Positions 387-32,000 of a stretch of 32,000 bases of DNA are shown one piece after another. The DNA comes from Methylophaga frappieri. GTDB taxonomy: Bacteria > Pseudomonadota > Gammaproteobacteria > Nitrosococcales > Methylophagaceae. The stretch spans positions 480,001 through 512,000 of the forward strand of contig NC_017856.1 of the NCBI RefSeq assembly GCF_000260965.1, given 5' to 3'. Below the pieces are notes generated by a model. The model had not been told where the DNA came from. It made no database searches and was given only the letters and a program-made list of their open reading frames with translations. Both the position numbers and the translations under genes were made by a program. Positions within the stretch are counted from its first letter, which is position 1. Each line of letters opens with the position of its first letter.

Positions 387-396
387 TCCAGTTCCC

Positions 397-1964: not shown

Positions 1965-2139
1965 ATTTTGGTCACATCGCCCATGTAAAGCCAGGTCAAA
2001 ATCGACCGAGATTTTCCTAAGTTCGGATTGAGGGGTCAAGAAATTTACGGCGTCACTATTTTAAATAATGACTAAAAACAAATAAAATCAATTACTTGAA
2101 TGTAAACTCTAATCTTATTTAGAATTTGCTAGTTAAGAA

Positions 2140-2544: not shown

Positions 2545-2547
2545 CTA

Positions 2548-2841: not shown

Positions 2842-2913
2842 GTGTCTCTTTTATCCCGGCAAAATAAAAACCATCAAATGGCTTATCGTTCATTGCAGCA
2901 ATTTCGGTACTGC

Positions 2914-2945
2914 AAAAAAAACAGGCATCCGAATTCGGATGCCTG
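2914..2945 (-). terminator. Rho-independent terminator after rpsA
   Basis: On the minus strand: 10-bp stem CAGGCATCCG, AATT loop, CGGATGCCTG, then T8 (plus-strand A-run 2914-2921). It lies 15 bp downstream of the rpsA stop. Confidence 0.8.
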
Positions 2946-2959
2946 TCCCTGTGACAGTT

Positions 2960-4633: not shown

Positions 4634-4710
4634 TATAATGACATCCTTGACCCCATCATTAAATGTGATGGAATCACCCGTTGTTCCTGTCAAACTTAGA
4701 CAGGAATATT

Positions 4711-4738
4711 AAAAAAACTTAACTGTGACTCAGTTAAG
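4711..4738 (-). terminator. Rho-independent terminator after cmk (upstream of rpsA)
   Basis: Minus strand: CTTAACTG-AGTCA-CAGTTAAG (8-bp stem) followed by T7. It starts 14 bp downstream of the cmk stop. A second 8-bp hairpin (TTCCTGTC/GACAGGAA, 4684-4706) lies in the rpsA leader. Confidence 0.65.
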
Positions 4739-4751
4739 CACCTAAAATAAA

Positions 4752-6729: not shown

Positions 6730-6746
6730 AGTGCGCTATGACTCCA

Positions 6747-8721: not shown

Positions 8722-9185
8722 CGCTTAACCGCCGGTTTACGAAAACTGTCCATGATTAAGAGTATCGCCCCAATGCAAATTGCCGAATCCGCGATATTAA
8801 ATGCTGGCCAATGATAGGTACCAACGTATACATCAAGAAAATCAACCACGTAGCCATAAACAAGACGATCCATGACATTACCAATCGCGCCACCAATAAT
8901 TAAAGCCAAAGATATTGCTTCGACTTTATCGGCTGATGACAAGCGCCGCATCCACACTGCCAATACCAGCGAAACCAATACCGCCAGCACAACAAAAAAC
9001 CAGCGCTGCCAGCCGCCTGCCCCAGCCAGAAAGCTAAAGGCTGCACCGGTATTATGGGCTAGCGTCAAGTTAAAAAACGGCATTACTGGAACTGTTTCAT
9101 ACAACGAAAGCCAATTAACCATCACTGTCTTACTGATTTGGTCAATAATGAAGACTGTTAAGCTTAACCAGAGATATTTCAACAT
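8718..9185 (-). CDS. lspA: Lipoprotein signal peptidase (signal peptidase II)
   Basis: 155-aa four-TM protein with NTGAAFSF and FNIADSAI motifs. It lies immediately downstream of ileS, as is conserved. Confidence 0.93.
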   Translation of the reverse strand: MLKYLWLSLTVFIIDQISKTVMVNWLSLYETVPVMPFFNLTLAHNTGAAFSFLAGAGGWQRWFFVVLAVLVSLVLAVWMRRLSSADKVEAISLALIIGGAIGNVMDRLVYGYVVDFLDVYVGTYHWPAFNIADSAICIGAILLIMDSFRKPAVKR

Positions 9186-9191
9186 AATCGA

Positions 9192-11978: not shown

Positions 11979-12150
11979 AAAAAAGCTCGTATGATAAATA
12001 CATAAAGGAGGCGATTATACGGGTTTTTGCTCCCGACCTGAAAGCGATTGACGGCTTTTCTTCGCAGGATTTTTTTGGATTTGCTTCATTAACTTGCAGT
12101 AGAATATGACTAAAACAAACTCCTCAAAGAAGTGAAAGAGCCAAGTTGCA

Positions 12151-12444
12151 ATGACCGCAACCGAAAAAGTCTTGATCAAAGGTCTTACCGAAGATGGCAG
12201 TAAATTTCGCCCAAGCGATTGGGCAGAGCGCCTGTGTGGCGCTGTTGCCAGTTATGGACCGGGAAGACGCATTATTTTTCACCCTCACGTCAGAATGGCC
12301 AACCTGGAAGGCGTTAAATGTGTTGTCATCGACGCCTTGCTCGAGCAAAAAGATGAAATGTTGTTCGAGTTTTTACTGGACTTTGCCAAAGAAAATCAGT
12401 TGCAAACAGAGCGCGTTAATTGGCAAACAACCCCACCACAATAA
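12151..12444 (+). CDS. DUF3579-like small protein
   Basis: 97 aa. GSKFRPSDWAERLCG...FHPHV resembles the DUF3579 family as I recall it. Two overlapping ORFs (12124-12348 minus, 12194-12484 plus) look spurious. Confidence 0.6.
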   Translation: MTATEKVLIKGLTEDGSKFRPSDWAERLCGAVASYGPGRRIIFHPHVRMANLEGVKCVVIDALLEQKDEMLFEFLLDFAKENQLQTERVNWQTTPPQ

Positions 12445-12447
12445 CTT

Positions 12448-12900
12448 TCAGTTATCTTGGTGTTCGGCATCCGGCCAGTTTTGAATGTAGTTTTTCAAGA
12501 GTTTATTCTCAAACTTGGCTTTCTTTAGCAGCTCTTCAACAATATCCGTGATGGAGAGCATGCCTTCCAGGCGGCCTTGATACACCACAGGCAAATGGCG
12601 AATATTGTGTTCGACCATCAGATTCATACAGGCTTCAAGCGTATCATCTGGTTCACAGGTATACGGATCCGGTGTCATCGCATCTTTGGCGGTGAGTGGT
12701 TGCCACATTGCATGTTTTTGATGCAACACCCGTAACAAATCTCGTTCCGACAAAATACCGACCAAAGCACCATTATGGGTCACAACCAAAGAACCAATTC
12801 GGTGCTCCATCATAAGGTTGACGGCTTTGTCTAACGAGTCAGTGGGTAACAAGCCAATCACTGGCTTGCCTTTATTTTTGGTAATGGATCTGACTTTCAT
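12448..12900 (-). CDS. CBS domain-containing protein
   Basis: 150 aa with two CBS-like repeats (HRIGSLVV...GILSERDLL and HNIRHLPVV...GMLSITDIV). Confidence 0.8.
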   Translation of the reverse strand: MKVRSITKNKGKPVIGLLPTDSLDKAVNLMMEHRIGSLVVTHNGALVGILSERDLLRVLHQKHAMWQPLTAKDAMTPDPYTCEPDDTLEACMNLMVEHNIRHLPVVYQGRLEGMLSITDIVEELLKKAKFENKLLKNYIQNWPDAEHQDN

Positions 12901-13008
12901 GCTGTCTCTCCGCTGACCTGCGTCAATGCTATTTTGCTTGACTACGTGCAGGCCTGCAAGTGATTTGCAAAACCATTATCGGCAGGTTATTTCACCTGTT
13001 GTCCATTA

Positions 13009-15342
13009 TTATGCCGCCGTTTGTGCCGTCCTTTTTTCCAGTCGTATCGCTACAAATTTTGAGGTGGGTGTAAAGGTCCTGTCACCATAGCTTTCTAGTG
13101 GTACCAACGGATTTGTTTCAGGGTAGTATGCTGCCGCCTGACCTGCAGGCACATCAAAACTTAACGCGGTAAATCCTGATACACGGCGCGTTTTGCCATC
13201 ATGCCACAGCGACACAATGTCTACTTTTTCGCCATGCTCAATACCCAAACGTTTTAGATCAGCTTCGTTAATAAAAATGACATCACGCATACCATAAACG
13301 CCTCGGTAGCGGTCATTCAGACTATAAACCGTCGTGTTGTACTGATCATGAGAGCGCATGGTTTGCAAGATGAGATCTGGCTGTTGGTCCGCCGCAGTCA
13401 ATTCAGGATGAATCAGGGATTCCGGCAACGCATGTTTCATAAACTGCGCTTTACCTGATTCAGTAAGCCATTGACGCTCTGCCGCCGGATTACCCAGATA
13501 AAATCCGCCAGGGTTTGCAATCTTATTATTAAAATCGGTAAAGCCCGGAATCGTTTCGGCAATTAATTGACGAATACGATCATAATCCGCAATCAGCCAT
13601 TGCCAGTCGACGGGATGGTTACCCAGCGTAGCGTGTGCGATTCCAGCAATAATGGCCGACTCGGATTTCAGTAAAGGCGAGAAAGGTTTCAATTGACCGT
13701 AGGAAATATGCACCATACTGAAAGTATCTTCGACGGTAACACCTTGTTTGCCGGACTGCTGGGCATCCATTTCAGTGCGACCAAGGCAAGGCAAAATCAA
13801 TGCGTCTTTGCCGGTAATCAGATGACTGCGATTTAGCTTGGTGGAAATTTGGACGGTTAAATCACAATTTTGCATTGCCGCATGGGTGCGTGGCGTGTCC
13901 GGTGCGGCTTGCACAAAGTTGCCCCCTAAACCAACAAAGACTTTGGTTTTGCCATGCTCCATTGCCTCGATGGCTTTAACGGTCGTATGGCCATGGGCAC
14001 GCGGCACATTAAACTTAAATCGTGCCTCAAGCGCATCAAGTAATTGTTTGGGCGGTTGTTCATCAATGCCCATGGTGCGGTCACCTTGCACATTACTATG
14101 ACCACGTACCGGAGACAAACCAGCACCGGGTTTACCGACATTGCCTCGCAATAATTGCAAACTGATAATTTCCTGAATGGTCGCAACAGAATGCACATGC
14201 TGTGTCACCCCCATTGCCCAGCACATGATGACGCTATCTGCCTTGCGATACATGTTTGCCGCCATTTCAATCTCGGCCAGACTTAAACCAGACTGTGATT
14301 CGATGTGTTGCCAAGACGTGTTATCCAATTGTTCCAGATAATCATCTATACCATGGGTATGGGTAGCGATGAATTCGCGGTCAAATACCGCCGGCGTATT
14401 ATTTTTAAGCGAAGCCTGCTCCCATTGCCATAGAAACTTGGCCATGCCTCGAATTGCCGCCATATCGCCGCCCAGGGCCGGCCTAAAATAGGCTGTATTG
14501 GTTGGTTCGGAATCATTTTTTAACATTTCCAGCGGGCTTTGCGGATGCTGAAATCGTTCCAGACCACGTTCTTTCAACGGGTTAAAACAAATCACCTGCG
14601 CCCCACGATGCACCGCTTCTCGCAATGGTTCGAGCATGCGTGGATGATTGGTACCCGGGTTTTGTCCAATAACAAAAATAGCATCAGCTTTGGCGAAGTC
14701 TTCAAACCGGACTGTGCCTTTACCAACACCGATCGACTCCGACATCCCAATACCACTGGCTTCATGGCACATATTAGAACAGTCAGGGAAATTGTTCGTA
14801 CCCAGGGCGCGAACAAACAGCTGGTACAAAAAAGCCGCTTCATTACTTGCCCGGCCAGAGGTATAGAACTCAGCCTCATCAGGTGAATTCATTGCCTTTA
14901 AATGCGATGCGACTATTTCAAACGCGGCCGGCCAAGTAATGGGTTTATATCGATCAGATTTTGCGTCATAGCGCATTGGGTGGGTAATTCTACCCTGCGA
15001 CTCAAGCCAATAATCATCATGCGTCAATAATTCAGCAACGGCATGTTTTTCAAAAAAAGCCGGATCGACGCGACGACCGGTCGCTTCCCAATTAACGGCT
15101 TTGGCACCATTTTCGCAAAACTTAATCATGCCTTTTTCAGGGGTTTCACCCCACGCACAGCCGGGACAGTCCAGACCGTGATCCTGATTGGTTTTGAGCA
15201 TGGCCTTGATATTGGCAACCGCATTGCGGCTACCTAACCAGCTTTTGGTCACACTGACCAATGCTCCCCAGCCTGCGGCTGGCCCGGTATAAGGCTTGTA
15301 ATGACTCAAGAAATGTCTCCACGACGATGAAATCAATATCAA
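13009..15342 (-). CDS. FdhF/YdeP-family molybdopterin oxidoreductase
   Basis: 777 aa. The N-terminal AAGWGALVSV...LDCPGCAW matches the YdeP-type signature, followed by a molybdopterin oxidoreductase core. The start is uncertain: an in-frame TTG at 15309 with an upstream GGAG is an alternative. Confidence 0.85.
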   Translation of the reverse strand: MILISSSWRHFLSHYKPYTGPAAGWGALVSVTKSWLGSRNAVANIKAMLKTNQDHGLDCPGCAWGETPEKGMIKFCENGAKAVNWEATGRRVDPAFFEKHAVAELLTHDDYWLESQGRITHPMRYDAKSDRYKPITWPAAFEIVASHLKAMNSPDEAEFYTSGRASNEAAFLYQLFVRALGTNNFPDCSNMCHEASGIGMSESIGVGKGTVRFEDFAKADAIFVIGQNPGTNHPRMLEPLREAVHRGAQVICFNPLKERGLERFQHPQSPLEMLKNDSEPTNTAYFRPALGGDMAAIRGMAKFLWQWEQASLKNNTPAVFDREFIATHTHGIDDYLEQLDNTSWQHIESQSGLSLAEIEMAANMYRKADSVIMCWAMGVTQHVHSVATIQEIISLQLLRGNVGKPGAGLSPVRGHSNVQGDRTMGIDEQPPKQLLDALEARFKFNVPRAHGHTTVKAIEAMEHGKTKVFVGLGGNFVQAAPDTPRTHAAMQNCDLTVQISTKLNRSHLITGKDALILPCLGRTEMDAQQSGKQGVTVEDTFSMVHISYGQLKPFSPLLKSESAIIAGIAHATLGNHPVDWQWLIADYDRIRQLIAETIPGFTDFNNKIANPGGFYLGNPAAERQWLTESGKAQFMKHALPESLIHPELTAADQQPDLILQTMRSHDQYNTTVYSLNDRYRGVYGMRDVIFINEADLKRLGIEHGEKVDIVSLWHDGKTRRVSGFTALSFDVPAGQAAAYYPETNPLVPLESYGDRTFTPTSKFVAIRLEKRTAQTAA

Positions 15343-15595
15343 CCAGCTTTACGAAAAAGCGGCAGCAACCCAAGTTGCTGTATTTTAAAGCTGGATTCTC
15401 TCGCTGACAGTCAGTGAGATCAGAACGGCGGTTGTGCATGATGAAAAAATGCCGCGACTCGCATTTTTAACATCCTTCTGATCGTTGCGATCTAGGACAA
15501 ATTATATATTTTCCAGTTAGTTGCATTCAAGCCCAGTTTTATTTCATTGTTAAAGCAGTTAGCGCAAAACTTGTCTTCAAGCATAGGCCAAGTTG

Positions 15596-17176
15596 CTATA
15601 AGTGCTCACGCGTTGCACGAAATTCAATATCCGGCCAACGTTCCATCGTTAAATCCAAATTAACCCGCGTTGGCGCAATGTAAGTGAGATTTTCGGCACC
15701 ATCCCAAGCCAGGTTTTGAGAAGCTTTACGTTTAAACTCCTCTAATTTTTTTACATCATCACAGTACACCCAGCGCGCGGTATGCACTTGCACTGGCTCG
15801 TAGGCACACTCGACGTTGTATTCTCCCTTGAGTCGATGCACGACCACATCGAACTGCAAGACACCAACGGCACCTAATATCAAATCATTATTATCTAATG
15901 GTCGGAATAGTTGCGTCGCCCCTTCTTCGCTAAGCTGTTGCAAGCCTTTTAACAAGGCTTTGTTTTTGAGGGGATCTTTCAATCTGACACGACGAAACAG
16001 CTCAGGCGCAAAGTAAGGAATACCGGTAAATTGCAGATCTTCACCCTGAGTAAAAGTATCACCAATTTGAATTGTGCCGTGATTATGCAGGCCTAAAATA
16101 TCGCCTGGCCAAGCCACTTCAGCTTGTTCCCGTTCAGCCGCCATAAACGTCACGGCATTGGCAATGGTTACCTCTTTACTCGTTCGGGATTGAAATAGTT
16201 TCATCCCTTTACTGTACTGGCCGCTACAGACCCGTAAAAAAGCGATCCGATCACGGTGTTTCGGATCCATATTGGCTTGAATCTTAAACACAAAACCACT
16301 GAATTTTTCTTCCTGTGCGCTGACTTCACGCGTTTTAGTTTCGCGGGGCTGAGGCGCTGGTGCGTACTCAACAAATGAGTCCATCAACTCGGTAATACCG
16401 AAGTTATTCATCGCAGAACCGAAAAAAACCGGCGTCAGTTTGCCCGCCAAAAATTCATCCAAATCAAACTCATGGCTGGCACCACGCACCAGTTCAATTT
16501 CTTCGCGCAAATCGCCAGCCATTGGGCCAAACAATTCGTCGAGACGCGGATTATCTAGGCCCTGAATAATCTCACCCGCTTCTTTCGTATGCGGCTGAAA
16601 CAAATGCACGCTGTCATTCAACAGATGGAAAATACCTTTAAATCCTTTGCCCATACCAATCGGCCAAGTGATTGGTGCACATTGAATATTAAGAATGGTT
16701 TCAACTTCATCGAGTAGTTCAATTGGCTCACGACCTTCACGGTCGAGCTTATTGATGAAGGTCAGAATCGGGGTATCACGAAGACGGCAGACCTCCATCA
16801 GTTTGATGGTGCGTTCCTCAACGCCCTTGGCACTGTCGATAACCATTAACGCCGAATCGACGGCCGTTAAAGTACGGTAGGTATCTTCCGAGAAGTCGGC
16901 GTGACCCGGTGTATCAAGCAGGTTGACGATACGGTCTCGATAAGGGAACTGCATCACCGAGGAGGTCACCGAAATGCCGCGCTCCTTCTCCATTTCCATC
17001 CAGTCAGAGGTCGCATGCTTGTCGGTTTTGCGTGACTTAACGCTACCCGCCATCTGAATCGCGCCACCAAAATACAGCAGTTTTTCGGTCAGGGTCGTTT
17101 TACCCGCATCCGGGTGCGAGATGATAGCAAAGGTCCTTCGCTTATTGATTTCATTGAGAAAATCTTGGTTTGCCAT
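15596..17176 (-). CDS. prfC: Peptide chain release factor 3 (GTPase)
   Basis: 526 aa with G-domain motifs [17 protein letters not shown] and NKLD. The first ~17-22 codons and the promoter probably come from the ICE (see attR). Confidence 0.96.
17109..17125. other. Probable attR core of the SXT/R391-type ICE inside prfC
   Basis: In prfC sense the sequence is ATCATCTCGCACCCGGA, encoding the IISHPD part of the P-loop. This matches, to within 1-2 nt, my recollection of the 17-bp attP/attB core used by SXT Int in prfC. It was recalled, not aligned. Confidence 0.5.
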
Positions 17177-17432
17177 GTATAAATTCTTTTAGTTTGTACA
17201 CGGATTTGTACACACTTTTGGAAGTACTCTCTTTTCAGTTCTTCGCTTGTCAAATCCGTCGTGTTAATCGTAATTGGCCGCTATTTTCGCTGATCTTGAC
17301 TTTATAAACAATCAATGGTTATCTAATCGGTTACCATTTGCTCTCAGCGTGCGCCAATGCTCAGTTGTAGCTGTTTGCAATCGTTGCTTCTTCAGCTCAT
17401 GAACAACTGTGGCTAAACCACAAATTCCTTCG

Positions 17433-18080
17433 CTACCAGAAATCGATGATAGCTTGTCGTACTACACCGATGATGGTGCAGTTGCCGTTGATCGGTATTG
17501 CAGGGTATTGCGGGTTCAAAGGTTTTAGATACTTCTGTTCACCATCAATAACCAACTGCTTAAAGGTTGCTTCTTTCGAATCATCCAAACGCGCAACAAC
17601 CAATGAACCTGAAGAGTAAGGTAACTCAGGATCAACAACGATCACTGCCCCCTCAGGTATGGATTTTTTTCCGCTTGGATTTTCCATACTGTCGCCTTTT
17701 ACGCGAAGTGCGAAACAACCCTCATGTGCTTTCCCAGTGACTTCACGCCACTCCTCAGCATCTTCATGGGCAAATCCCTCCGCTATTTCAGTCCAATCAC
17801 CGGCCTGAACCCAGTTAATGAGAGGAATTCTTCCCTTAATATCAGGCCCGACTTCTACATTACCGACCCCCAAGCCAATCTCGCCATCACCTGTGGCGAG
17901 CCAATGAGCATTCACGCGAAGCGCCTCCGCGATCTGCATGGTGTAACGAGACCTAGCCGATTTACCAGAGCAAATCTGGCTGATCGACTGCTGTTTGATA
18001 CCAATGCGACGAGCCAACTCAGACTGAGTTACCCCAGTAAGCTGCAAGGCATGGTTTAGTCGTTCGGATAAAGTTTTCAT
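17433..18080 (-). CDS. setR: Lambda CI-like repressor SetR (HTH-XRE + S24 peptidase)
   Basis: 215 aa with an N-terminal HTH (VTQSELARRIGIKQQSISQI). The C-terminus parallels lambda CI closely: VQAG cleavage site (A93-G94), GDSM Ser131, FKQL Lys174, and LKPLNPQYPAIP against lambda LQPLNPQYPMIP. Confidence 0.92.
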   Translation of the reverse strand: MKTLSERLNHALQLTGVTQSELARRIGIKQQSISQICSGKSARSRYTMQIAEALRVNAHWLATGDGEIGLGVGNVEVGPDIKGRIPLINWVQAGDWTEIAEGFAHEDAEEWREVTGKAHEGCFALRVKGDSMENPSGKKSIPEGAVIVVDPELPYSSGSLVVARLDDSKEATFKQLVIDGEQKYLKPLNPQYPAIPINGNCTIIGVVRQAIIDFW

Positions 18081-21904: not shown

Positions 21905-24900
21905 TCAGTTCCTTCCTGATGCCTGGTTATAAGCCCTAATATCGATCAAGTTGTTCTGAGCATAATCTCCCGCAAGCGATGCATTTGAGATCACCGCTAT
22001 CTGCTTATCCACAAATGCTTTATCTTCTTCGGACACACTGTCAGGAATGTAAGCGCCACTCTCATCCTTTTGACGATACTCATTTAGCATTTGCTCCCTT
22101 AGACCTAGCATTTCAGGCGCCCAACTCGATGAGTCTTCAGAGTTGAATACGCGTCCCGCCAAACCTTCATTGAAAGCTTGAGCGAACACTTGACTTTGAA
22201 TCGGGGTCAATCCCATTCTCTGCCCTTCGCTGTATGCTTCCTGTTTGAAATCATCGGCATACTGTTCTAAGAACTCACCATATCGATTGTTAACTGCCGC
22301 ACCAAATGCCCCCGCCAACATGGCTTCAGACTTAGTGCCCCAGTTTACTTCGGAGGCATACTGCGAACTCGATCCACTGTATGCATCATTAAACGCCGTC
22401 AATGGATTTTCCAAAGAGGTTCCGGCATCAACGGCGGCTTTTAACCCATCCCAGGTTGATTTGCTGGCCACCGTTGCGTTGTGCAAGAAACCTCGTGAGC
22501 CAGGATCTTCAAGCGCTTGTTCTTTGTAACTCTCATAGTCTTCGCCAAAGTGATTCAAGGTATGCAGAGCTGCATCAGTATGCTTGCCACTGAAATCACC
22601 AATAGCACTGGCGCTGTTGAAGAACATTTCAGCACCAGAAACTCCGCTATCATCAGCCATAATGCGTGATCGCCACTGAGATCCAGCTTCACTGTTTAGT
22701 CCAGATTGATAGGTACTTGTGTCAGTAGCTACGGCCTGCTGAGCTTGCTGCTGATGCGCATTCAACTGTCCATCTATACCAGACAGATTGGTTTGGTAAG
22801 CCGATTGAGCTGCGTTGAACTGAGTTTGAACTGTTGCAGCATCCTCGTAGCCGCCCAATACACCCGATTCAACTTGGCTTTGAGTACCACCAAAAGTAGG
22901 TGCAGCTGATGACAAGCCTTCATTAGAGCGCGGTTGAATTGATCGTAAATCGGCTCCGGTAGCCATGGCCATAACAGTCATTGCTGCTTGATAATCATTG
23001 TCTCGTTCAGCGGGCGTTGAGGAGTTGCTATAGGTTAAAGACTCCATAGCTGCGGCCACATACGCCTGATTATCATCAGGTAGCAAGCGCTGATACATTG
23101 GAAGGTTTTCACGTAATCGGTTACCTGCTTCAACATGCTGGTTCATATAGCGACCTAAATAATCCATGACTTCAGGATTATCCGCTGCTAATCGAGTTAA
23201 CGTCGCACCATCCGTGTTCCTTTGTCCTGATAGACTGTAGCTGGCCTGATCAAGCTCACTAAAACGGTTTGATGCCGTGATAACGTCTTGTGCTGAACTC
23301 TGAAGTGACTGATAGTCTTGGTTAGACAACGACATTTCAACGCCAGAACGTCTTGAATCTGAAAGGTCCTTAACCATCGCATCGCGATACTCAGCACGTC
23401 GTGAATCACTTGATGCCAAGCTATGCATCTCCCCAGTGAGCGTATTTGCGGTCGTAGATCGAGAACTGCCTTCTGACGACTCAACTTGGCCACTAAAGTT
23501 ACCACCTAAATCCAGCCCTGCTCGTACCCTTGATAGTTTTGGTACACGAGATGAGTCTGGCTTATCGACTCCTGGCAAGTTGCCCTGTGGAGAATCATTG
23601 CCGCCAGTACCAAGAAGCCTTCCAAGAAAGCCCTTATCAGCAACTTCTTTCTCACCGGGATTAGTAATGGTTCCATCGCCACCGACCCTTAGGCCTCCCG
23701 ATAGCACGCCCGATACCAAGCCACGTACAGCATCTTTTTTATCGTCTCCAAAACCATACCGAGTTTGCAGGTCATCAGTAACCTGATTAACAACGGCGCT
23801 AGATGCGGAGTTAGAAGAACCAATCTGACGTCCAACCGAAGAAAGGTTGTCGTAACTTAGCTTTTCACCAAAGGTTCGACTCATGGTATTGCCAACCTGA
23901 CGGCTAAAGGCTTGAGTTGCCTGAGTCATGGATTCTTTTGCAGAGCCGACCATTGAACCCACTGCGTTTCCGACAGAGAAACTGCTTAGTAGGTTTGACG
24001 CGCCGGTCATAGCAGAACCAGTGAGGGCTGAATTTTGGAACATTGACTGTGATTGCATTACCGGGGCATTTTTCGCGACATCTGGACTTGCCAGCTTTTC
24101 ATCAATGGCATCACCGTTTTGTAGACGCCCAGCCAAGTGGGTAGCGGTTATTGCTGAGCCATAAACGAGCATGAGCGAAATCGCCGGAACACTCGACGCC
24201 AACATGCCGCCAGTAGCTATCCAGGTTTGCAGCACTGAATCCATCTGCATCATCCCAGCAAAAGATGGCACTTCTGTACCTGCAAAGGCATCAAGAGCAG
24301 ACATTTTCCCTGCAACGGTTAAATGAATATACAGGTTAATGATGGCCATGACAGGCATCCAAAGTTGAATCCAAAGCAGGATTAACAAGTACTTCCCAGC
24401 CATTCGCATCCCTATTTGGCCAAGGGCTATCACAAAGGCCATCAATGGGGTGATGGCGTAAATGAACCCCTCAAAAAACGTCATCATCGGACGAACGATA
24501 CTCTGGAACAGGGTCTGCTCCGCCGCCCATTGCGTATTACGCTGCTCAATCGCTTGGTTAACCATAACGGCTGCGGTGAAAGCTTGATCATCCATATACT
24601 TTCCCGTCACGCTTTGCTCATAAATAGGCAAAAGCACTGACGCGGTCATATACTCTTGGGTGTTAACCGAAGCCAAACCAAGGTTATTCAGTGCATTTCG
24701 GATCACGTCATCAGTGTCCGTTGCTGACGAAGTCCCCAATGAGGCTGACAGAACCTGTTTAAGCCTTGGAATGAAGGTTGATTCTGTCATGAGTTTCAGT
24801 TGGCTATAGGCATCGGTGCAGTCCAGATCGCTACTGCTACCACTGAGCATGATTCGAGTGCCATAAATGCGCGAATCAAACCTAATCGCTGTCATCGGGT

Positions 24901-25474
24901 TAGGATCACTCAGCACCTGATCGAGGTTCTTTTGGCCGATGTCGATACCAATCAAGGTGCACTCTTTGATGTAGTAAAACCACGATTGCTCGATATCCGA
25001 GCCGCCGACACGATTTGCATCACCCAACCCAGAGCGATCCATCACCTGTTTTCTCACTTTAATCAGTGACTGTAAACTGGATGCAAAGCCGTATTCCGTC
25101 ATGGCGGGAGTTGAGAACGCCGTTTCAAACAATCGCGTGATTTGAAAGCCAACAGTCGAAATCGTACTGCCTGCGGCAGCAACACCGATGGGCACATTAT
25201 CAACCACTCGAACTTGTCCCGTGTACGCATCCTCAATGCTCACTCGGGTACTGGGCCCAAACATGGTTGCAAAGACTAGCCATGAGACTAAAACGTGTTG
25301 AAAGTTAATCCCTCGACCACCTTGCATTAAGGCCTGAACAGAGACCATCAATACCCCAATGAGCAAGCCAATGCGAACCATTGAAGTAAAGTCGCCTGTA
25401 CCAGTAATCATCGCGACAGCGTTCAAGACCTGCTCTAAAAAAGCCGAATCCCCGATGGAATAGATTTCCCACAT
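21905..25474 (-). CDS. traG: F-type conjugative transfer protein TraG (mating-pair stabilisation / entry exclusion target)
   Basis: 1189 aa with a polytopic TraG_N-like N-terminal half and a long Ser/Gly/Gln-rich C-terminal half. Located downstream of traH and traF. PGE at residues 606-608. Confidence 0.9.
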   Translation of the reverse strand: MWEIYSIGDSAFLEQVLNAVAMITGTGDFTSMVRIGLLIGVLMVSVQALMQGGRGINFQHVLVSWLVFATMFGPSTRVSIEDAYTGQVRVVDNVPIGVAAAGSTISTVGFQITRLFETAFSTPAMTEYGFASSLQSLIKVRKQVMDRSGLGDANRVGGSDIEQSWFYYIKECTLIGIDIGQKNLDQVLSDPNPMTAIRFDSRIYGTRIMLSGSSSDLDCTDAYSQLKLMTESTFIPRLKQVLSASLGTSSATDTDDVIRNALNNLGLASVNTQEYMTASVLLPIYEQSVTGKYMDDQAFTAAVMVNQAIEQRNTQWAAEQTLFQSIVRPMMTFFEGFIYAITPLMAFVIALGQIGMRMAGKYLLILLWIQLWMPVMAIINLYIHLTVAGKMSALDAFAGTEVPSFAGMMQMDSVLQTWIATGGMLASSVPAISLMLVYGSAITATHLAGRLQNGDAIDEKLASPDVAKNAPVMQSQSMFQNSALTGSAMTGASNLLSSFSVGNAVGSMVGSAKESMTQATQAFSRQVGNTMSRTFGEKLSYDNLSSVGRQIGSSNSASSAVVNQVTDDLQTRYGFGDDKKDAVRGLVSGVLSGGLRVGGDGTITNPGEKEVADKGFLGRLLGTGGNDSPQGNLPGVDKPDSSRVPKLSRVRAGLDLGGNFSGQVESSEGSSRSTTANTLTGEMHSLASSDSRRAEYRDAMVKDLSDSRRSGVEMSLSNQDYQSLQSSAQDVITASNRFSELDQASYSLSGQRNTDGATLTRLAADNPEVMDYLGRYMNQHVEAGNRLRENLPMYQRLLPDDNQAYVAAAMESLTYSNSSTPAERDNDYQAAMTVMAMATGADLRSIQPRSNEGLSSAAPTFGGTQSQVESGVLGGYEDAATVQTQFNAAQSAYQTNLSGIDGQLNAHQQQAQQAVATDTSTYQSGLNSEAGSQWRSRIMADDSGVSGAEMFFNSASAIGDFSGKHTDAALHTLNHFGEDYESYKEQALEDPGSRGFLHNATVASKSTWDGLKAAVDAGTSLENPLTAFNDAYSGSSSQYASEVNWGTKSEAMLAGAFGAAVNNRYGEFLEQYADDFKQEAYSEGQRMGLTPIQSQVFAQAFNEGLAGRVFNSEDSSSWAPEMLGLREQMLNEYRQKDESGAYIPDSVSEEDKAFVDKQIAVISNASLAGDYAQNNLIDIRAYNQASGRN

Positions 25475-25477
25475 TAT

Positions 25478-26866
25478 CTATTCCCCCAGCGCCGTAGATT
25501 TAACGGTGTAATAACGCTGTTTGCGAATGGTCTGAATCACCTGGTTAAAATGCGCCAGCAACTCTTGCTCTGAGCCGTATCTTCGCTGCAACGCAGCGTA
25601 CTCCTCATTGATTTGGCGACGTGCACGTTCAAGGTCTTCCGTTAACAACTTCGCATAGGCATGATCTTCCACACTGGAGGTACTTCTAGCTGCATTGAGC
25701 ATGTCTTCAACCAATGCTCGGGCCATCTCAACAGCAATAAATGGTGCCGCTCTTGAAGCAAACGACCTAGCGGCCCCTTCATTTAATGCAGAAAGTGTTC
25801 GAATCATGCCGCCAATGCTCGCGGGAGCCGAGGTCATAAAAGCCTTTTCGGTGGTGCTAGCAGCCCCTGTATTTCGAGCAAATTTAAAAATAATGCCGTT
25901 ACTAGAACCTGTACCTAGAAGTAAATTTTCGACCTGAGTTGATAACCCGGTTAGGGTCACGTTAGCGATTGTCGGATTTAGACAGCCGTCTTGTGTCACT
26001 GTGTCACATCGGTACATAGCGACGTTACCGCCATGAATTAGATGCTCAATAGTCACTTTATTGCCATTCAGCCTGGTCAGTTTTGGGGCTTTACCTTGGC
26101 CATCAGCGGCATTAGCAAGATCACCAACAATGATCGAACCAGTCACCGACATAACCGCTTCAAGAAAACGGTCATCCCCCGATGCAAACCAGCTTGATGC
26201 CGAGTGACGTTTCAAGGCCCGCCAAACCAAATTACCTTTAATCGTTTTGTTCACATCAGATGCCGCGACACTCGAAGCGTTCTCATATGGGTTCTTACCA
26301 TTGGATTCACTCCAACTGGTAAAAACGTCTCCAGCCCCTTTAAGTGAGCTCAACATGCTGGCTTCTGTTTGCCCCTTTTTACCAAAAGCAGCCAGGGTAT
26401 CGTTCACAACTCCCTGAGCCATTTGACAGGAATTGCCAAAATATTCGTTCAACTGCTGGATTTTCTTTTGCAGTGTCTCCATGTGCTGAGAGCATTTCTC
26501 ACACATAGCACTGAGCGCTAATTGGAATGCGTATCCCTTGGCGTTTGCAGCAACAGAACGAAGTAATTGAACAAACTGATCTGCATTAACAAATGACAAA
26601 CTTCCAGCGAACATATCAATGCCGCCACAACCGGCTTGAAATGACGGAGGCACCATAGAGACGAGGTTCTCGTTCATGATCCTGTTACGAACAACAACAC
26701 TTCCGCCAGATATAACTCCACGCCGCTGACTCTCGAATACACCAGGCGCAGTGGTGTTGGTCATTGAACCAAACAACTGATTCATCTCCTGTTGCAAGCT
26801 TGCTTGGCTCATAGATGAAAAACCAATCGCAAAGGCGATTAGCGATACTCGTAATACTTTTTTCAT
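25478..26866 (-). CDS. traH: F-type conjugal pilus assembly protein TraH
   Basis: 462 aa with a signal peptide. The AGCGGIDMFAGSLSFVNADQ motif is typical of TraH. Its position between traF and traG also fits. Confidence 0.88.
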   Translation of the reverse strand: MKKVLRVSLIAFAIGFSSMSQASLQQEMNQLFGSMTNTTAPGVFESQRRGVISGGSVVVRNRIMNENLVSMVPPSFQAGCGGIDMFAGSLSFVNADQFVQLLRSVAANAKGYAFQLALSAMCEKCSQHMETLQKKIQQLNEYFGNSCQMAQGVVNDTLAAFGKKGQTEASMLSSLKGAGDVFTSWSESNGKNPYENASSVAASDVNKTIKGNLVWRALKRHSASSWFASGDDRFLEAVMSVTGSIIVGDLANAADGQGKAPKLTRLNGNKVTIEHLIHGGNVAMYRCDTVTQDGCLNPTIANVTLTGLSTQVENLLLGTGSSNGIIFKFARNTGAASTTEKAFMTSAPASIGGMIRTLSALNEGAARSFASRAAPFIAVEMARALVEDMLNAARSTSSVEDHAYAKLLTEDLERARRQINEEYAALQRRYGSEQELLAHFNQVIQTIRKQRYYTVKSTALGE

Positions 26867-26868
26867 CG

Positions 26869-27834
26869 TTATAACCCTCCTTGTGCACGCAGATAGCGAA
26901 CAAGGAACTCAGGATCCTGTAATATCTTCTCGTTAAGCTCTTGGGCTGACATCGCAAGTGACACGCCGGGCTGAACAGGTCTAGTGGCATAGTAAGTTTG
27001 ATCGTCAATCCAACCAGCTTGATGGGCTGCAAGAATGATTCGATTATTGAGCTCATCAAGGCTCATTGCGCCTTGGCCAATCGAAGTGATGACGTTAGGC
27101 GGATCAACTAAGAACACGGCAGGGACAGTCGTAACGGACAATGATTGAGCTTGTCCTGAATCGACTTTGTAATTGGGAAACTCTCCACCGGGTAAAGGCA
27201 AGCCATCGACAGCAATAGCAAACACCTCGAACCCATAGTTCAAGGCTATAGATTCGATGATAGGCGCTTGAGCATGGCAATAAGGGCAATCCGAACGATA
27301 GAAAAAGAACAAGCCTGCTCGCTTCGCTACTTCACCTAAAGCAACATCACGCTGAGCGCCAGCTTCTCGATCCATCCGATTGGCGGCATAAGTCGCCAAG
27401 GGTCTGCGACTGATTTCATCCAAAACTGGATCGCCAATTACCACCTGCTGACTTACATCAGCAAATAGTGAGCTCTTATCCATCATGACGCGCTGGAGAT
27501 ACAGATAGGCTCTGACGTTCTCATTCGTCGGCTCATCAATTGCCTTGTCCATAAACGATTGCATATGCTCTCGGAACCATGCGGCACTGAAGGGCTTTAG
27601 TTCGCTCTGACTGGACTCCACGACACCAGCTTCCGGCTCTATCAGCTCATCAGGCAGTTCAGGTTCAGGAATGACCTGATACCAAAACCAGCCTTCCTGA
27701 CCACGCTGATAGAATGGCCCATCACTGGCATGGGCGGGCAAAATGAATAGAAAGAAAATAATGATTGGGATGGTCACCCATAGGATGAACCAAGGTAACA
27801 AGGGGGTTCTCATTGTCAGCTCCAGAAATTTCAC
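26869..27834 (-). CDS. traF: F-type conjugal transfer protein TraF (thioredoxin-fold, with CPYC motif)
   Basis: 321 aa. GWFWYQ and FFFYRSDCPYCHAQAPI motifs indicate a TraF/TrbB thioredoxin-like family protein. It is the first gene of traF-traH-traG. Confidence 0.85.
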   Translation of the reverse strand: MKFLELTMRTPLLPWFILWVTIPIIIFFLFILPAHASDGPFYQRGQEGWFWYQVIPEPELPDELIEPEAGVVESSQSELKPFSAAWFREHMQSFMDKAIDEPTNENVRAYLYLQRVMMDKSSLFADVSQQVVIGDPVLDEISRRPLATYAANRMDREAGAQRDVALGEVAKRAGLFFFYRSDCPYCHAQAPIIESIALNYGFEVFAIAVDGLPLPGGEFPNYKVDSGQAQSLSVTTVPAVFLVDPPNVITSIGQGAMSLDELNNRIILAAHQAGWIDDQTYYATRPVQPGVSLAMSAQELNEKILQDPEFLVRYLRAQGGL

Positions 27835-27936
27835 AGAGCTAACATGCTAAAGATCCCCGTTAGAGCGATTGGCCAGATAGATGAAGGAATCGTGTGTGTT
27901 TCTGACTATCAATTATTTATTAGATACTGACTTCAC

Positions 27937-29847
27937 CTAATCAGAGTTACTTTTCACTTCAAGTATGCTAATTGCCTTCCAGCCCCATTCTGACCTTTTC
28001 TTATTGTAATTTAGAACTGCATAGCCAGTTACAAAGTCGCCATCAATAATGCTATTTTCTCTTATCAAAGGCGGTGGAATGAATATTCCATCATCGGTGA
28101 ACCCCATACCATTTTCTTCTCGAATATCGTCGCTAAAAGGCTTCAAGATGCTGCTTGGAATCGGGTTTGTTGTTTTGGAAGATGTAAGTACCCTGTAACG
28201 GGTTCCTTGCCTGCTCGTGTACTTGGCTAAACGTAATGAAATTGCATCGCCTTCTTTGAACCTTTCAGACAGATCTGAAAAATGAATTACGCCATCAATT
28301 GTTCTACTAATCATAAAGTGTATTAGCTTTTTGCTTGTATTGACGTGATCTACAATTCCAATTTGCTGCTCGAAAATATCCCAGTGATCATTTGATGATC
28401 GATGCTCAATTGCATACACTTGGAAGCGGTTTTCTCTATCAAGCTCGCCCTTGATTTTTAACGCGGCCCCTGGTTTACCAGCATCAAAAGTTAGTTTTGA
28501 TTCAGGAATTGTGACTTCCATCGGTAATGAACTTGATTGAACGTAAAGTTTGCGTTTAGCTTTATCTTTTTTTCCTTCGATAAAAAATTTGTCGCCTAGC
28601 ACTGCATTTATCCATGGTAAATCACTGTATAAAAGCTCCTCTGCATGGGTGGCTTTATCTAAGTAGAGCTGATGATTCGATTTACTGCTGATAGCGCCTT
28701 GATACCAAGTACTGCGCATGAGTATCTCTGCTGATTCAGGGATTTTTTGATTGTTCTCTGATCGATAGTTGACAAGTTTATCAATTTCCAATTTGGCTTC
28801 TGAAGCTAGGCCGATTTTTGAAAGGAGTTCCGCAAGCTTGATTTTAACTTTGCCAACAAAATTAATATCTTTTGAGCAAAGTAATGCCTTGCAGTAACAA
28901 GAAATTGCCAGATCGAGAGAGTTTGATTGATGAATATCTCCGAGAAGCTCCCATGCCCAGTAGTCGTTGATCTTATTTTTGACAACTTCTAGACCATAGG
29001 AAAAAGCTTCATTACTTTGCTTTGTTGCCATCAATGCTCTGGCCTTGCTCAGTTTCAGCCAGATATTATCTGGGTATCTATTAATACAATCATTGATATA
29101 GGGGAGTAGATAGATTAATTCTTCGTATGCGTCATTCGTGAAGGAATCTTTACTGGCGTGTTGAATAACACGTTCTGCTAGAGACGGGTATGAATTTCCG
29201 TCATCGGAAATATATGGGTCATAGTCCTCAGGACGAAGATTTTCTAAACCCCATATGCGAGCAAAAGCTCCCATATTTAACTTGCCTTCTTTAGCTATTT
29301 TGTCTGCTAGTTGAAGAATGCAAGTGTGCAACAAAGATGGTTTTTCCGTGTTTAGTTTGAGGTAGTCATTAATGAACCTTTTCGCGCCATTGAAATTGAC
29401 CTGCGTTTGTTCTGTCATGGCTTTTGCGACACGGTATAGCTCCCATGCTAAACCGGTTTGAACATCAATAGATTGATCTCCATTATTGTATATCCGTTTA
29501 TAAAGATTTAACGCTCCATGATGATCGCCTTGCTTGCTTAATGATTTTGCTTTGAGAATTTCTTGGCCATTGGGGTTGCTGAGCCTGAGTGCATACTCTC
29601 TTTGATCCGTTAGTATTTTGTCTGATGCATCAATATTCAAGTTTCGAAGTTGATCAGAGTAGTGGTGAATGTTTTCACTTTTTCCAGATTGTGCGTCTCT
29701 TTTAATTAAATCGATTACGCACCAAGCAAAAGCCTTTATATCCCATTCATCATTATCTGGCTTATTAATTAGCTCAATCGCCATTTTGTAGGCTTCATCA
29801 AGCTTGCCTTCCTTGCGAGTAGAAAAAACGTCCCTGCTAGTAATCAC
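27937..29847 (-). CDS. Uncharacterised 636-aa protein: TPR-like alpha-solenoid (about 1-405) plus three OB/S1/cold-shock-like beta modules (about 411-630)
   Basis: The GTG start overlaps the helicase TGA stop (GTGA), with an AAGGA RBS 8 nt upstream. TPR-like pairs include GDHHGALNLYKRIY and YWAWELLGDIHQSNSLDLAISCYCKALL. The last module, GMGFTDDGIFIPPPLIRENSIIDGDFVTGYAVLNYNKKRSEWGWKAISI, follows the cold-shock-domain pattern. Confidence 0.75.
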   Translation of the reverse strand: MITSRDVFSTRKEGKLDEAYKMAIELINKPDNDEWDIKAFAWCVIDLIKRDAQSGKSENIHHYSDQLRNLNIDASDKILTDQREYALRLSNPNGQEILKAKSLSKQGDHHGALNLYKRIYNNGDQSIDVQTGLAWELYRVAKAMTEQTQVNFNGAKRFINDYLKLNTEKPSLLHTCILQLADKIAKEGKLNMGAFARIWGLENLRPEDYDPYISDDGNSYPSLAERVIQHASKDSFTNDAYEELIYLLPYINDCINRYPDNIWLKLSKARALMATKQSNEAFSYGLEVVKNKINDYWAWELLGDIHQSNSLDLAISCYCKALLCSKDINFVGKVKIKLAELLSKIGLASEAKLEIDKLVNYRSENNQKIPESAEILMRSTWYQGAISSKSNHQLYLDKATHAEELLYSDLPWINAVLGDKFFIEGKKDKAKRKLYVQSSSLPMEVTIPESKLTFDAGKPGAALKIKGELDRENRFQVYAIEHRSSNDHWDIFEQQIGIVDHVNTSKKLIHFMISRTIDGVIHFSDLSERFKEGDAISLRLAKYTSRQGTRYRVLTSSKTTNPIPSSILKPFSDDIREENGMGFTDDGIFIPPPLIRENSIIDGDFVTGYAVLNYNKKRSEWGWKAISILEVKSNSD

Positions 29848-31658
29848 GAGCTAAGTCCTTCAGTTATAACAGTCTGAATTTCAGAAACTAACGTATCTGA
29901 TGTGCAGGAATTATTAACGGGTGCGTACTTGGTGAATTGATTTTTCCCGTTATAAAAAATGTCAATCACAGCACACTCTCCAGATTGAATAAATGTGTAG
30001 CGCTGTTTCCAATCCATTGACTCAACATTGTTGATCTTGATTCCTAGCGCACTCACAAGAGGTGTAATCCTTGAGTGAAATTCGTTCAGAAACTCTTCGT
30101 TGAACGTGAAGTCAGAGTCCGAATCTGAGGTCTCTGGAACAATGAGTATTCCATTAATAGGAGAAAGTATGTCTAGTAACCTAAGGCCAAGGTCTGATTG
30201 TGTGGGGGCGGTAATTCTCGTAATTTTTCCCTTACCGTTATAGCCGATATCTATTCGCGTGATCTCATTATTTACTTCAAAAAAATAAACTTCTAGGTAC
30301 TGACCTTGGCTAACATCTTGGATCTTTACGTCGGATCCCTTTAATAGCCTTCGAACTCGTCCTAATACCTCAAGTGAAAAGTTTGCATGGGGTGGAATGC
30401 CGAAGTTATTGTCTTCTTCTGTGTCAATGGGGTTGTCGCTAGCGTTTATATGTTGATGGTTTGACTTGGGAGTATTCTGGCTGCTTACCTTAGAGCTTAA
30501 TATATTTGGAGAGTTAACAGCTTTGATGCCAGCACCAATCTTTATATTTGGCGGGTCTAAAAGGTATAGGTTTTTTGATGTTCTGGTGATTGCCGTATAG
30601 AGCCAGCGAAAATAATCAGCGGATAGCTGACTCTGATGTGTTTTACATTTTACAAACACGTGATTCCATTCGCTGCCCTGTGCTTTATGGCAAGTAATGG
30701 CGTAGCCAAACTTAAGCCTCAAAGCATTAAAATATGAATCTGATCGAAGGGTCTCTTTGAATTCCAAACTTCCGCGCTTTAAATGTGGATGACGGATACA
30801 AAAATCCAAATACAAGGCCTTGCTCTCGTCTGAAGTAAGACCTGGATGTTCGCTGTAAAGTAAGTCTTCTAGAATTTTTGCGTTGAAGAAATGTGGAGTT
30901 CCTTCTAAGTCTTTAAAGCCAATAATGACGTCTTTAAAAGCTAGCGAAACTGAAATCTCTTCAACTTCGTTCGTTTCTGAGTTCTTTCTGCGCAAGGTTA
31001 TTTGTCTGCGTTCGGTTGGGCTTAAAATCTCTCTGACCAGGCCGAAGTCACCATTTGATATAAAGAACCCATAAGCATTACTGTTGCTTACAGCCATCAC
31101 TTTATCGCCCGCAGAAACCTCTGGGTTATCTGGGAAAAAATGCTGTCTTATTTTTCGATTGTAAGCAGCGACATCAGAATTAGAATGCGCAAGGACTATA
31201 GACTCTGCATTAATTTTTCTATTGCAGGATTCAAGATATACATCTAACAAGTCTGCATGGCTTACGTTGATGATGTCTGGGAAGCTTGAGTCTATTGATA
31301 GCTGGTTAAATACCCCGTTCTTTAAAGATTTACGAAGGTTTATGGAGTTTAGCATGACTCCGCTACCTGACTTTTGACGAACAACTTCAGTCAATTCAAA
31401 CAGAGTGCTTTTGATATTGTGCTCTCTAGATAGATACTTCTGGTCAAGAGCAGGAGAGAAATTCATCCCGACAGGTGGGAGCTGAGCATCATCGCCAATA
31501 AAGATTACTTTTTTTCTGTGGTCATTATGGTCTAGATTTACAAACTTGAAAAAGTCTCTGAGCAAGTAGCCAGTACCGAATCTAAAGAATTCTTCCTCAT
31601 GATATACATCTGCAATCATTGACGATTCATCAACAATGTAGACAGTATCAGCAGACAT
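29844..31658 (-). CDS. SF1 Dda/RecD-like DNA helicase, 5'-truncated, with tandem C-terminal accessory domains
   Basis: Motifs present: II (YIVDESSM), III (FIGDDAQLPPV), V/VI (GYAITCHKAQGSEWNHVFV, LYTAITRTSKNLYLL). The frame stays open upstream to 31860 and encodes motif Ia (VLAAPTGKASKV...TIHK). No Walker A and no start codon are present there. The frame enters the IS terminus at 31861 and hits a stop at 31884-31886. Confidence 0.8.
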   Translation of the reverse strand: MSADTVYIVDESSMIADVYHEEEFFRFGTGYLLRDFFKFVNLDHNDHRKKVIFIGDDAQLPPVGMNFSPALDQKYLSREHNIKSTLFELTEVVRQKSGSGVMLNSINLRKSLKNGVFNQLSIDSSFPDIINVSHADLLDVYLESCNRKINAESIVLAHSNSDVAAYNRKIRQHFFPDNPEVSAGDKVMAVSNSNAYGFFISNGDFGLVREILSPTERRQITLRRKNSETNEVEEISVSLAFKDVIIGFKDLEGTPHFFNAKILEDLLYSEHPGLTSDESKALYLDFCIRHPHLKRGSLEFKETLRSDSYFNALRLKFGYAITCHKAQGSEWNHVFVKCKTHQSQLSADYFRWLYTAITRTSKNLYLLDPPNIKIGAGIKAVNSPNILSSKVSSQNTPKSNHQHINASDNPIDTEEDNNFGIPPHANFSLEVLGRVRRLLKGSDVKIQDVSQGQYLEVYFFEVNNEITRIDIGYNGKGKITRITAPTQSDLGLRLLDILSPINGILIVPETSDSDSDFTFNEEFLNEFHSRITPLVSALGIKINNVESMDWKQRYTFIQSGECAVIDIFYNGKNQFTKYAPVNNSCTSDTLVSEIQTVITEGLSS

Positions 31659-31860
31659 TTCATTGACAGCCAGTTGAGCATAGAACTTAAATGTCTCAGA
31701 CCCATCAAGGTTGTCTTCTTTATACTCAGAAATATCTTTGAATGAATAGATTGTCTTGTGAATCGTGTAAGCGGGAGATTGTGTTTTTTTAGCAATTACT
31801 TTTGATGCCTTTCCAGTAGGCGCGGCTAGGACATAGTTTCTTCCAATAGCCCTAAAGTAC

Positions 31861-32000
31861 GTAAGCGATCTATAAACACCATTCTAGCCTGAGCCAGCAC
31901 GGCCTGTCATAGTCGCCCCTCCATTTATCGAGGGCATTCCCATGAAAAAACAGCAATGGCAAACTCATGTTAAGGCGTACAATAGCAGCGGCCTATCTAA
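31861..32000 (+). mobile_element. IS66-family insertion sequence, left end (continues beyond the window)
   Basis: The terminus begins GTAAGCG at 31861, the hallmark of IS66-family inverted repeats as I recall them. Helicase reading-frame continuity breaks exactly there. A small ORF starts 81 bp inside the end. Confidence 0.6.
31942..32000 (+). CDS. tnpA: IS66-family accessory protein TnpA (orf1), N-terminal 19 codons only
   Basis: MKKQQWQTHVKAYNSSGLS resembles the N-termini of IS66 orf1 proteins (W..H..A...SGLS pattern). The fragment is very short, so the call is weak. Confidence 0.45.
   Translation, partial: MKKQQWQTHVKAYNSSGLS

Follow-up and report, generated by a model that had tools for sequence, protein, structure and literature searches.

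Apparent remnant of a TOTE/PDC-M16 gene pair in hotspot 3 of an SXT/R391-type integrative and conjugative element of Methylophaga frappieri

Gene pair upstream of traF and its disruption

The window analyzed here, a stretch of 32,000 nucleotides from Methylophaga frappieri (NC_017856.1, positions 480,001 to 512,000), ends with two long co-directional genes, termed gene A and gene B, which lie directly upstream of traF in an SXT/R391-type integrative and conjugative element (ICE). Gene A has been cut by an insertion sequence (IS), and the pair is almost certainly the decayed remnant of a TOTE/PDC-M16 system carried as cargo of hotspot 3 (Table 1). At the A/B junction, gAAGGActtagctcGTGAtt, the GTG start codon of gene B shares GTGA with the TGA stop codon of gene A, and an AAGGA ribosome-binding site is located 7 nt 5' of the GTG. 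The frame of gene A extends upstream until a stop codon at 31884-31886; the longest ATG-initiated open reading frame (ORF) within the remnant comprises 604 aa (29844-31658). The GC content was 0.38 to 0.42 throughout the 500-nt bins of 28001-32000, versus 0.46 to 0.49 in traG, traH, and traF (22001-27500), and the low-GC block (~39%) begins 81 nt upstream of traF. An earlier inspection of this DNA (hereafter, the sequence-only reading) had described two coupled genes with a GTGA overlap and an AAGGA site, a change of composition upstream of traF, and a helicase with extra C-terminal domains followed by a TPR protein ending in barrels. ORF calls and the junction sequence confirmed the first of these, the binned GC values the second, and Pfam searches together with AlphaFold2 (AF2) models the third.

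Public assemblies were searched for the exact gene B protein, which yielded several contigs, including one from a different sample (L002) with an uninterrupted 940-aa gene A (L002:7182-10004), followed by an identical gene B, traF, traH, and traG. From 31860 downward, the window was 100% identical to L002, the gene A remnant corresponding to L002:7988-10004. Homology to the intact allele ends exactly at 31860, with the break lying within codon 269, and from 31861 the plus strand reads GTAAGCGATC..., beginning with GTAAGCG, which we take to be a typical IS66-type end. The IS disruption that had been suspected from the letters is thus real, the IS66 end cutting the module at 31860/31861. Throughout its entire length the remnant does not differ from the intact allele, so the insertion is recent. 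Without codons 1 to 269, the window copy has no HEPN domain, no coiled coil, and no Walker A motif; it is a pseudogene, and the module cannot work there. Gene B, the sole intact gene of the window module, may still be expressed. The sigma-70-like site inside the IS end faces outward to the gene A remnant and gene B and, as a consensus match, could keep the orphan gene B transcribed; in the region overall, sigma-70-like sites were fewer than in shuffled controls.

Table 1. Features of the disrupted gene pair and of the intact gene A allele. Positions refer to the window, residues to the intact proteins.
Feature	Position	Strand	Residues	Remarks
traF-side edge of hotspot 3 insert	27916-27936	.		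Backbone resumes at 27915
Gene B	27937-29847	-		636 aa, intact
TPR-like alpha-solenoid	28627-29847	-	Gene B, 1-407	AF2, Foldseek
DUF7017 (PF22860)		-	Gene B, 262-402	Pfam E=8.6e-45
Three consecutive small beta-barrels	27964-28611	-	Gene B, 413-628	AF2 strand pattern and Pfam
S1CSD-TOTE-1 (PF22708)		-	Gene B, 489-553	Pfam E=1.7e-24
S1CSD-TOTE-2 (PF22707)		-	Gene B, 569-628	Pfam E=2e-22
Gene A remnant	29844-31860	-	Gene A, codons 270-940 of 940-aa protein	Pseudogene
DUF4145/HEPN			Gene A, 23-109	Pfam E=6.6e-11
Long helical segment, probably coiled coil			Gene A, about 150-203	
Walker A, GYAGTGKT			Gene A, 254-261	Upstream of break, gone from window
DE motif			Gene A, 346-347	
UvrD_C_2			Gene A, 654-703	
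Remainder of SF1B (RecD/Dda/Pif1-like) helicase core	30558-31860	-		AAA_30, AAA_19, UvrD_C_2; AAPTGKASK motif to UvrD_C_2
Two TBP-like repeats	29865-30389	-	Gene A, about 760-934	PF22721 TBP-TOTE E=6.5e-48, two stretches
IS66-family IS end	31861-32000	+		GTAAGCG terminus at 31861; first ORF (101 aa) from 31942; continues past window
Sigma-70-like site inside IS end	31881-31910	-		ATGACA-18-TAGAAT, 10/12, consensus match only

Positions 1-18080 of the window comprise the right end of the ICE and adjoining chromosome. A gene for a SetR-like (LexA/CI-like) repressor (17433-18080) is directly followed by prfC (15596-17176), beyond which lie the chromosomal genes for a ydeP-like oxidoreductase, ileS, hisC, tyrA, aroA, rpsA, and ccoN. 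Since the repressor gene is followed by prfC and these chromosomal genes, the ICE must have inserted at prfC, where SXT/R391 elements usually integrate, and attR should be located at about 17177-17432. On the ICE side, the window encodes TraF (26869-27834), TraH, TraG_N, an ORF at the position of eex, and FlhD/FlhC-type (SetC/D-like) regulators. As judged from Pfam and NCBIfam calls for the genes of the window, L002, and a further contig (L001), this gene order matches that of an annotated SXT/R391-type ICE from Escherichia coli (L089).

In SXT/R391 ICEs, hotspot 3 is the interval between s073 and traF (PMC2791158). Megablast similarity to other SXT/R391 ICEs ended at window positions 27908-27915, and the alignment of L002 with L089, in which the site is empty, broke at L002:11932/11933, corresponding to 27916/27915 in the window. 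This hotspot boundary lies 21 nt past the stop codon of gene B. When positions 27500-32000 were compared with E. coli genomes and PLSDB plasmids by megablast, the traF flank was matched and the module was not. L002 also contained an s073 homologue (L002:5889-6623) with 85% identity to the protein of the E. coli ICE; the insert in L002 begins near L002:6513. The placement in hotspot 3 is therefore correct on the traF side, and the backbone junction together with integration at prfC bears out the earlier suggestion of an SXT/R391-type ICE with cargo at this position.

Protein domains and assignment to TOTE/PDC-M16

Gene A had Pfam matches to AAA_30, AAA_19, UvrD_C_2, and two copies of TBP-TOTE (PF22721), described as the TATA-binding-like protein domain of TOTE conflict systems. 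The AAPTGKASK motif retained in the window, which we take to be motif Ia of superfamily 1B (SF1B) helicases, comes second among the conserved motifs of the helicase core, lies 20 residues past Walker A, and is not Walker A itself. Gene A scored 103.8 bits against the RecD2 equivalog TIGR01448 (cutoff, 500), and its closest sequences in the PDB were generic SF1B helicases only (9kwf_B, RecD2 3e1s, and Dda 3upu); by sequence, the helicase is classed as SF1B-like but not RecD2. The AF2 model contained a helical N-terminal domain at residues 14-124 (predicted local distance difference test [pLDDT] score of about 80) and two helix/4-strand/helix units at 762-837 and 858-939 (pLDDT about 80). The TBP-TOTE region additionally gave a weak match to PF19417, RnlA_toxin_N.

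The N terminus that is missing from the window carries a putative effector. According to the 2013 HEPN survey, DUF4145 belongs to the HEPN superfamily, and fusions to UvrD/RecD-type helicases are among those listed there. Among 25 gene A homologues with 59 to 87% identity, residues H85, G91, N92, A94, and H96 were invariant, and R88 was at least 90% conserved. The DUF4145 protein RAZR/PD-T7-4 cleaves single-stranded RNA (ssRNA) and requires R146/H154 for defence; the R88-x7-H96 spacing of intact gene A equals that of these two residues. A Pfam scan of family helicases, covering ten representatives, detected HEPN_Swt1 in place of DUF4145 at the N-terminal position of three distant members (L082, L084, and L085). 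Exchange of HEPN families at a fixed position is a typical trait of effectors in conflict systems, and it points to an RNase as the selected output in the clade of gene A. The sequence-only reading had noted the absence of an obvious effector motif; this was an artefact of truncation, the effector having been removed by the IS insertion. We also observed that the HEPN N terminus (residues 1-140; L002:7182-7601) matches the N termini of two PADLOC HsdR profiles (E=1.9e-17 and 1.4e-12), so the DUF4145 module is common to some type I restriction-modification enzymes.

Gene B matched PADLOC profile PDC-M16B over its full length (PDLC04488, E=2.1e-281). An AF2 model built from a 30-sequence alignment had a mean pLDDT of 91.4, with residues 4-407 all-helical (pLDDT of the solenoid about 93) and barrels at 413-482, 494-558, and 568-632. 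The first of these (28402-28611, minus strand) was five-stranded in the model and was covered by no Pfam model. Foldseek searches of the PDB with the gene B model gave TPR proteins for all top matches, including Ski3, subunits of the APC/C, OGT, and IFIT1, and a sequence search of the PDB found no relative of gene B.

Adjacent in the window, genes A and B together matched the PADLOC candidate system PDC-M16 (PDC-M16A, PDLC04472, E=0, for gene A). The match to PDC-M16A covered positions 262-928 of 930 in the window copy and 1-928 in L002 (1,383 bits). TOTE stands for TPR, OB, TBP, and Effector and is credited to Aravind, Iyer, and Burroughs (2022) in a 2025 preprint; the definition used here is the one given in that citing preprint combined with the names of the Pfam families. 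The TPR, OB (S1/CSD), and TBP modules were present in the window pair, the effector being gone, and all four modules were present in L002. The pair had been presented as undescribed, which did not hold, as both genes match Pfam TOTE families and PDC-M16; TOTE/PDC-M16 is already catalogued, as a computational candidate only. The related statement that the pair resembles no named anti-phage system agrees with PADLOC beyond this candidate, since no match was obtained to named, validated helicase defence systems (Hachiman, Gabija, Zorya, Druantia, Mokosh, Shango, Nhi, etc.). Other PADLOC matches were to PDC-S68, PDC-S53, generic RecD entries, and, for the HEPN N terminus, type I restriction endonuclease models; those to AbiO/Nhi were very weak (E of 1e-4 or worse, residues 162-278).

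Distribution, neighborhood, and recurrent lesions

One genome per species was scanned with the helicase alignment, which gave at least 492 confirmed relatives; 80 loci were kept, and the ORFs of 81 loci (these 80 and L002) were searched with an iterated gene B profile. A gene B homologue was located immediately downstream of the helicase gene in 75 of the 81 loci, i.e., in all that could be assessed. The remaining six were not assessable: five helicase genes lie at, or run into, a contig end, and the one in L011 is followed by only about 970 nt, too short a stretch for a gene call. The two genes usually overlap, by 4 nt (31 loci) or by 1 nt (14 loci). Of the gene B partners scanned (n=74), 71 contained DUF7017 and 50 to 55 contained S1CSD-TOTE domains. 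The pair is thus strictly syntenic, and the core system consists of two genes. Its hosts include Gamma-, Beta-, and Alphaproteobacteria, Myxococcus and other Deltaproteobacteria, Campylobacterota, Bacteroidota, Clostridia/Bacilli, Verrucomicrobia, Ignavibacteriales/Melioribacteraceae, and Cloacimonadota. TOTE/PDC-M16 is widespread, with more than 2,200 helicase clusters at E≤1e-5 among the matches listed. The pair was also found on 18 PLSDB plasmids, 9 of them Acinetobacter plasmids of about 330 kb, and was essentially absent from the phage genomes searched.

Among the flanking ORFs scanned (n=130) were BrxL, PglZ, DndD, DndH, ZacB, LeoA, LeoBC, components of MADS, SduA (Shedu), Drt2, SoFic, type I specificity subunits (S), McrBC, and GmrSD, and likewise integrases and transposases. 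Qualitatively, such neighbors fit a defence-island or mobile-element lifestyle. Translational coupling of a helicase with a TPR/OB protein, and the hallmarks of a conflict module, had both been proposed from the window alone; the gene pairing proved to be conserved in 75 of 75 assessable loci across many phyla, and the hallmarks are supported by this synteny and by the defence and mobile-element genes nearby.

A role as an accessory helicase of the ICE itself, acting in DNA processing during transfer, replication, or recombination with gene B as a cofactor binding single-stranded DNA (ssDNA), might be suggested by the RecD/TraA-like similarity of gene A, by the adjoining tra genes, and by the ICE recombination and replication genes upstream. 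However, the hotspot that holds the pair is variable and lacks an insert in other ICEs, and the GC content of the pair is unlike that of the backbone. The pair is dispensable, being broken in several samples, and many phyla have homologues of it outside ICEs, always with TBP, TPR, and OB modules and often with HEPN. Because of this variable location, dispensability, and distribution, such a housekeeping role is essentially excluded.

The sequence-only reading had further allowed for partner genes past the IS. Metagenome contig L087 was 100% identical to the last 7,552 nt of the window and extends beyond it; there the IS continues with three ORFs (101, 116, and 526 aa), of which the second and third matched TnpB_IS66 and DDE_Tnp_IS66. 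A search for inverted repeats marking both IS66 ends (L087:5100-8100) found none, and neither the far end nor a target-site duplication was located; with the IS end (L003:1-260) as the megablast query, plasmids yielded no match. In the sequence beyond the window end (L087:1-7869), the IS66 is followed by genes for a Y2_Tnp (IS91/ISCR-like) transposase, an 88-aa protein, a Mur-ligase-like protein, and an M50 peptidase. The 7.9 kb past the window thus hold the IS, a transposase, and unrelated cargo, and the expectation of further partners was not borne out. The 5' part of gene A was found neither in the window nor in these 7.9 kb, and the same applied to s073. At its left side, where the IS66 and other cargo now lie, hotspot 3 has either undergone rearrangement or been replaced by different cargo.

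The ICE-borne alleles in L002 and L007 have one more gene between s073 and the operon (L002:6713-7120; L007:6532-6939), which encodes an HTH_17 (excisionase-like) protein of 135 aa and matched mad1 of MADS weakly. It was considered as a third component and rejected: no locus other than L002 and the near-identical L007 has it beside the pair, so it does not belong to the core and probably represents independent cargo or regulates locally.

Contigs with a 100% identical gene B displayed four states of gene A. It is intact in L002, and L001 carries a nonsense mutation, S199*, caused by a single C-to-A change (L001:7777). The IS66 allele is shared by the window, L003, L087, and L088 and probably also by L005 and L006. 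In L004, a different IS (DDE_Tnp_1) is inserted at about codon 586 (L004:1-1161). All three lesion events fall in gene A, which makes up 60% of the operon, so that the probability of this by chance is about 0.21. The lesion pattern may reflect a fitness cost of the effector-bearing gene A, although it is statistically not significant; as proof of toxicity, the repeated lesions were rejected for the same reason.

These lesions also bear on a possible role in addiction, in which a HEPN-bearing toxin A and its inhibitor B would stabilize the ICE in the manner of a toxin-antitoxin (TA) pair, like mosAT in hotspot 2. Each inactivating lesion lies in gene A and none in gene B, as expected if A is toxic and B protective; HEPN domains are frequent among TA toxins (2013 HEPN survey), and SXT/R391 hotspots do carry the mosAT pair. 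Set against this, the clustering of the three lesions can be accounted for by target size, a 940-aa helicase and a 636-aa sensor-like protein are far bigger than usual TA pairs, and the pair occurs in many chromosomal loci beside defence systems and not just on mobile elements. We consider an addiction function unlikely, noting that addiction and defence are compatible and not mutually exclusive.

Proposed mode of action and comparison with known systems

A defence-type reading of the pair is reasonable, and it is from the evidence above that we infer a defence function for TOTE/PDC-M16. The following mechanism is put forward tentatively. Because translation of the two genes is coupled, A and B are proposed to associate, with the TPR domain as the scaffold of the complex. 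Invader nucleic acid that is single-stranded or unusual would be bound by the OB barrels together with the TBP saddle, candidate ligands being phage replication or transcription intermediates and incoming conjugative ssDNA. The SF1B helicase would then translocate with ATP and thereby check or amplify the signal, whereupon two HEPN domains, probably paired via the coiled coil, would become an active RNase. Cleavage of cellular and invader RNA would cause the infected cell to arrest or die, i.e., abortive infection. Taken jointly, the decayed TOTE/PDC-M16 identity and the proposed mechanism form a reading that we hold to be somewhat probable.

Several points count against this reading. The AF2 model of gene A was mediocre (pLDDT 69.7; predicted TM score, 0.40), and its domain arrangement is for that reason tentative. 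The canonical HEPN motif is Rx4-6H, which the R-x7-H spacing does not fit, and the ligand could be either RNA or DNA. The survey of neighboring genes was made without a matched background and hence is qualitative. No experiment on TOTE/PDC-M16 was found in the literature searched, the published tests of PDC candidates that we found omit M16, and no solved structure of TOTE/PDC-M16 was found in the PDB. Finally, about 38 of the 81 helicases (about 560 to 770 aa, some cut by contig ends) were without the N-terminal HEPN-bearing region, so that either the effector of these short-helicase systems lies elsewhere, or their core acts without an RNase.

The second of these options would correspond to a core in which helicase, TBP, and OB modules block invader replication or transcription on the DNA and HEPN is optional. 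Besides the short helicases, among them Bacteroidota proteins of about 710 aa, it can draw on the fact that the partners of short helicases show no Pfam effector either. However, the effectors of the short forms may merely be unrecognized, the HEPN residues are invariant in the clade of the present allele, and a second HEPN family stands in for DUF4145 in other clades, the last two points both speaking for selection on the RNase. An RNase-independent core thus seems quite improbable. As a separate observation, the short Bacteroidota helicases (about 710 aa; L045 and further loci) had no N-terminal domain, and their TPR partners were longer, at about 850 to 890 aa, the extra region having no Pfam match.

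SF1B helicases such as RecD2 and Dda load on ssDNA, which would suit immunity against plasmids or conjugation, with the helicase and OB domains sensing the conjugative ssDNA of competing elements. The system is carried by an ICE and by large plasmids, and a HEPN precedent exists in the DUF4145/DUF3644 proteins named Ishtar, which block plasmid conjugation (2026 preprint). Yet an ICE that itself moves as ssDNA would run the risk of becoming its own target, and chromosomal contexts resembling defence islands commonly have the same architecture; this alternative to anti-phage defence appears rather unlikely. We would likewise treat as speculative, and as hardly probable on present data, the broader proposal that TOTE/PDC-M16 is a functional abortive-infection or anti-conjugation system, its helicase with OB and TBP nucleic-acid sensors licensing a fused HEPN RNase, for which an ssDNA-transferring ICE pays a cost in self-targeting, explaining at least three independent knock-outs of gene A with gene B kept.

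The window module itself is a pseudogene remnant and is not to be counted as a working defence system. Immune-type cargo can be hosted by hotspot 3 of SXT/R391 elements as well as by hotspot 5. Such elements disseminate antibiotic resistance among Vibrio, Proteus, and their relatives, so what they carry can affect how susceptible these bacteria are to phages. The intact allele in L002 and three natural knock-outs that are otherwise identical provide a test case within a clinically relevant ICE family.

Defence cargo of hotspot 5 (BREX etc.) is likewise variable, shifted toward AT, and placed at a fixed backbone junction in the same ICE family; the present cargo differs in lying in hotspot 3, between s073 and traF, in being a candidate rather than a validated system, and in being inactivated. 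The closest likeness is to TOTE, all four name-giving modules of which are found in L002, with PADLOC profiles matched at full length and two adjacent, coupled genes, whereas the window copy lacks the effector and the ATP-binding loop through the IS66 insertion. TALON (YprA helicase, NERD nuclease, TPR-CSD, and TBP) shares with TOTE the TPR-CSD fusion protein and TBP proteins, but it relies on an SF2 helicase of the YprA type and a PD-(D/E)xK nuclease, the present system on an SF1B helicase and a HEPN effector. With RecD2, Dda, and Pif1, gene A has the SF1B core in common (AAA_30, AAA_19, SH3_13, and UvrD_C_2), yet it differs by the extra N-terminal HEPN and C-terminal TBP modules and by a score far below the RecD2 equivalog cutoff.

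RnlA and LsoA toxins (RNase LS) join TBP-fold domains to a HEPN RNase domain. The weak RnlA_toxin_N matches on the TBP-TOTE region indicate a likeness at the level of the fold, below the Pfam threshold; these toxins lack both a helicase and a TPR/OB partner, and a small antitoxin (RnlB, or phage Dmd) keeps them in check. RAZR/PD-T7-4, an abortive-infection RNase acting on ssRNA, has the same DUF4145 HEPN family and the same R-x7-H spacing as gene A. It is a small zinc-finger and HEPN protein that senses phage proteins, being activated by phage protein rings. In contrast, the HEPN domain of gene A has no zinc finger, is fused to a helicase and TBP modules, and is paired with a TPR/OB protein, an architecture which, unlike that of RAZR, suggests the sensing of nucleic acid.

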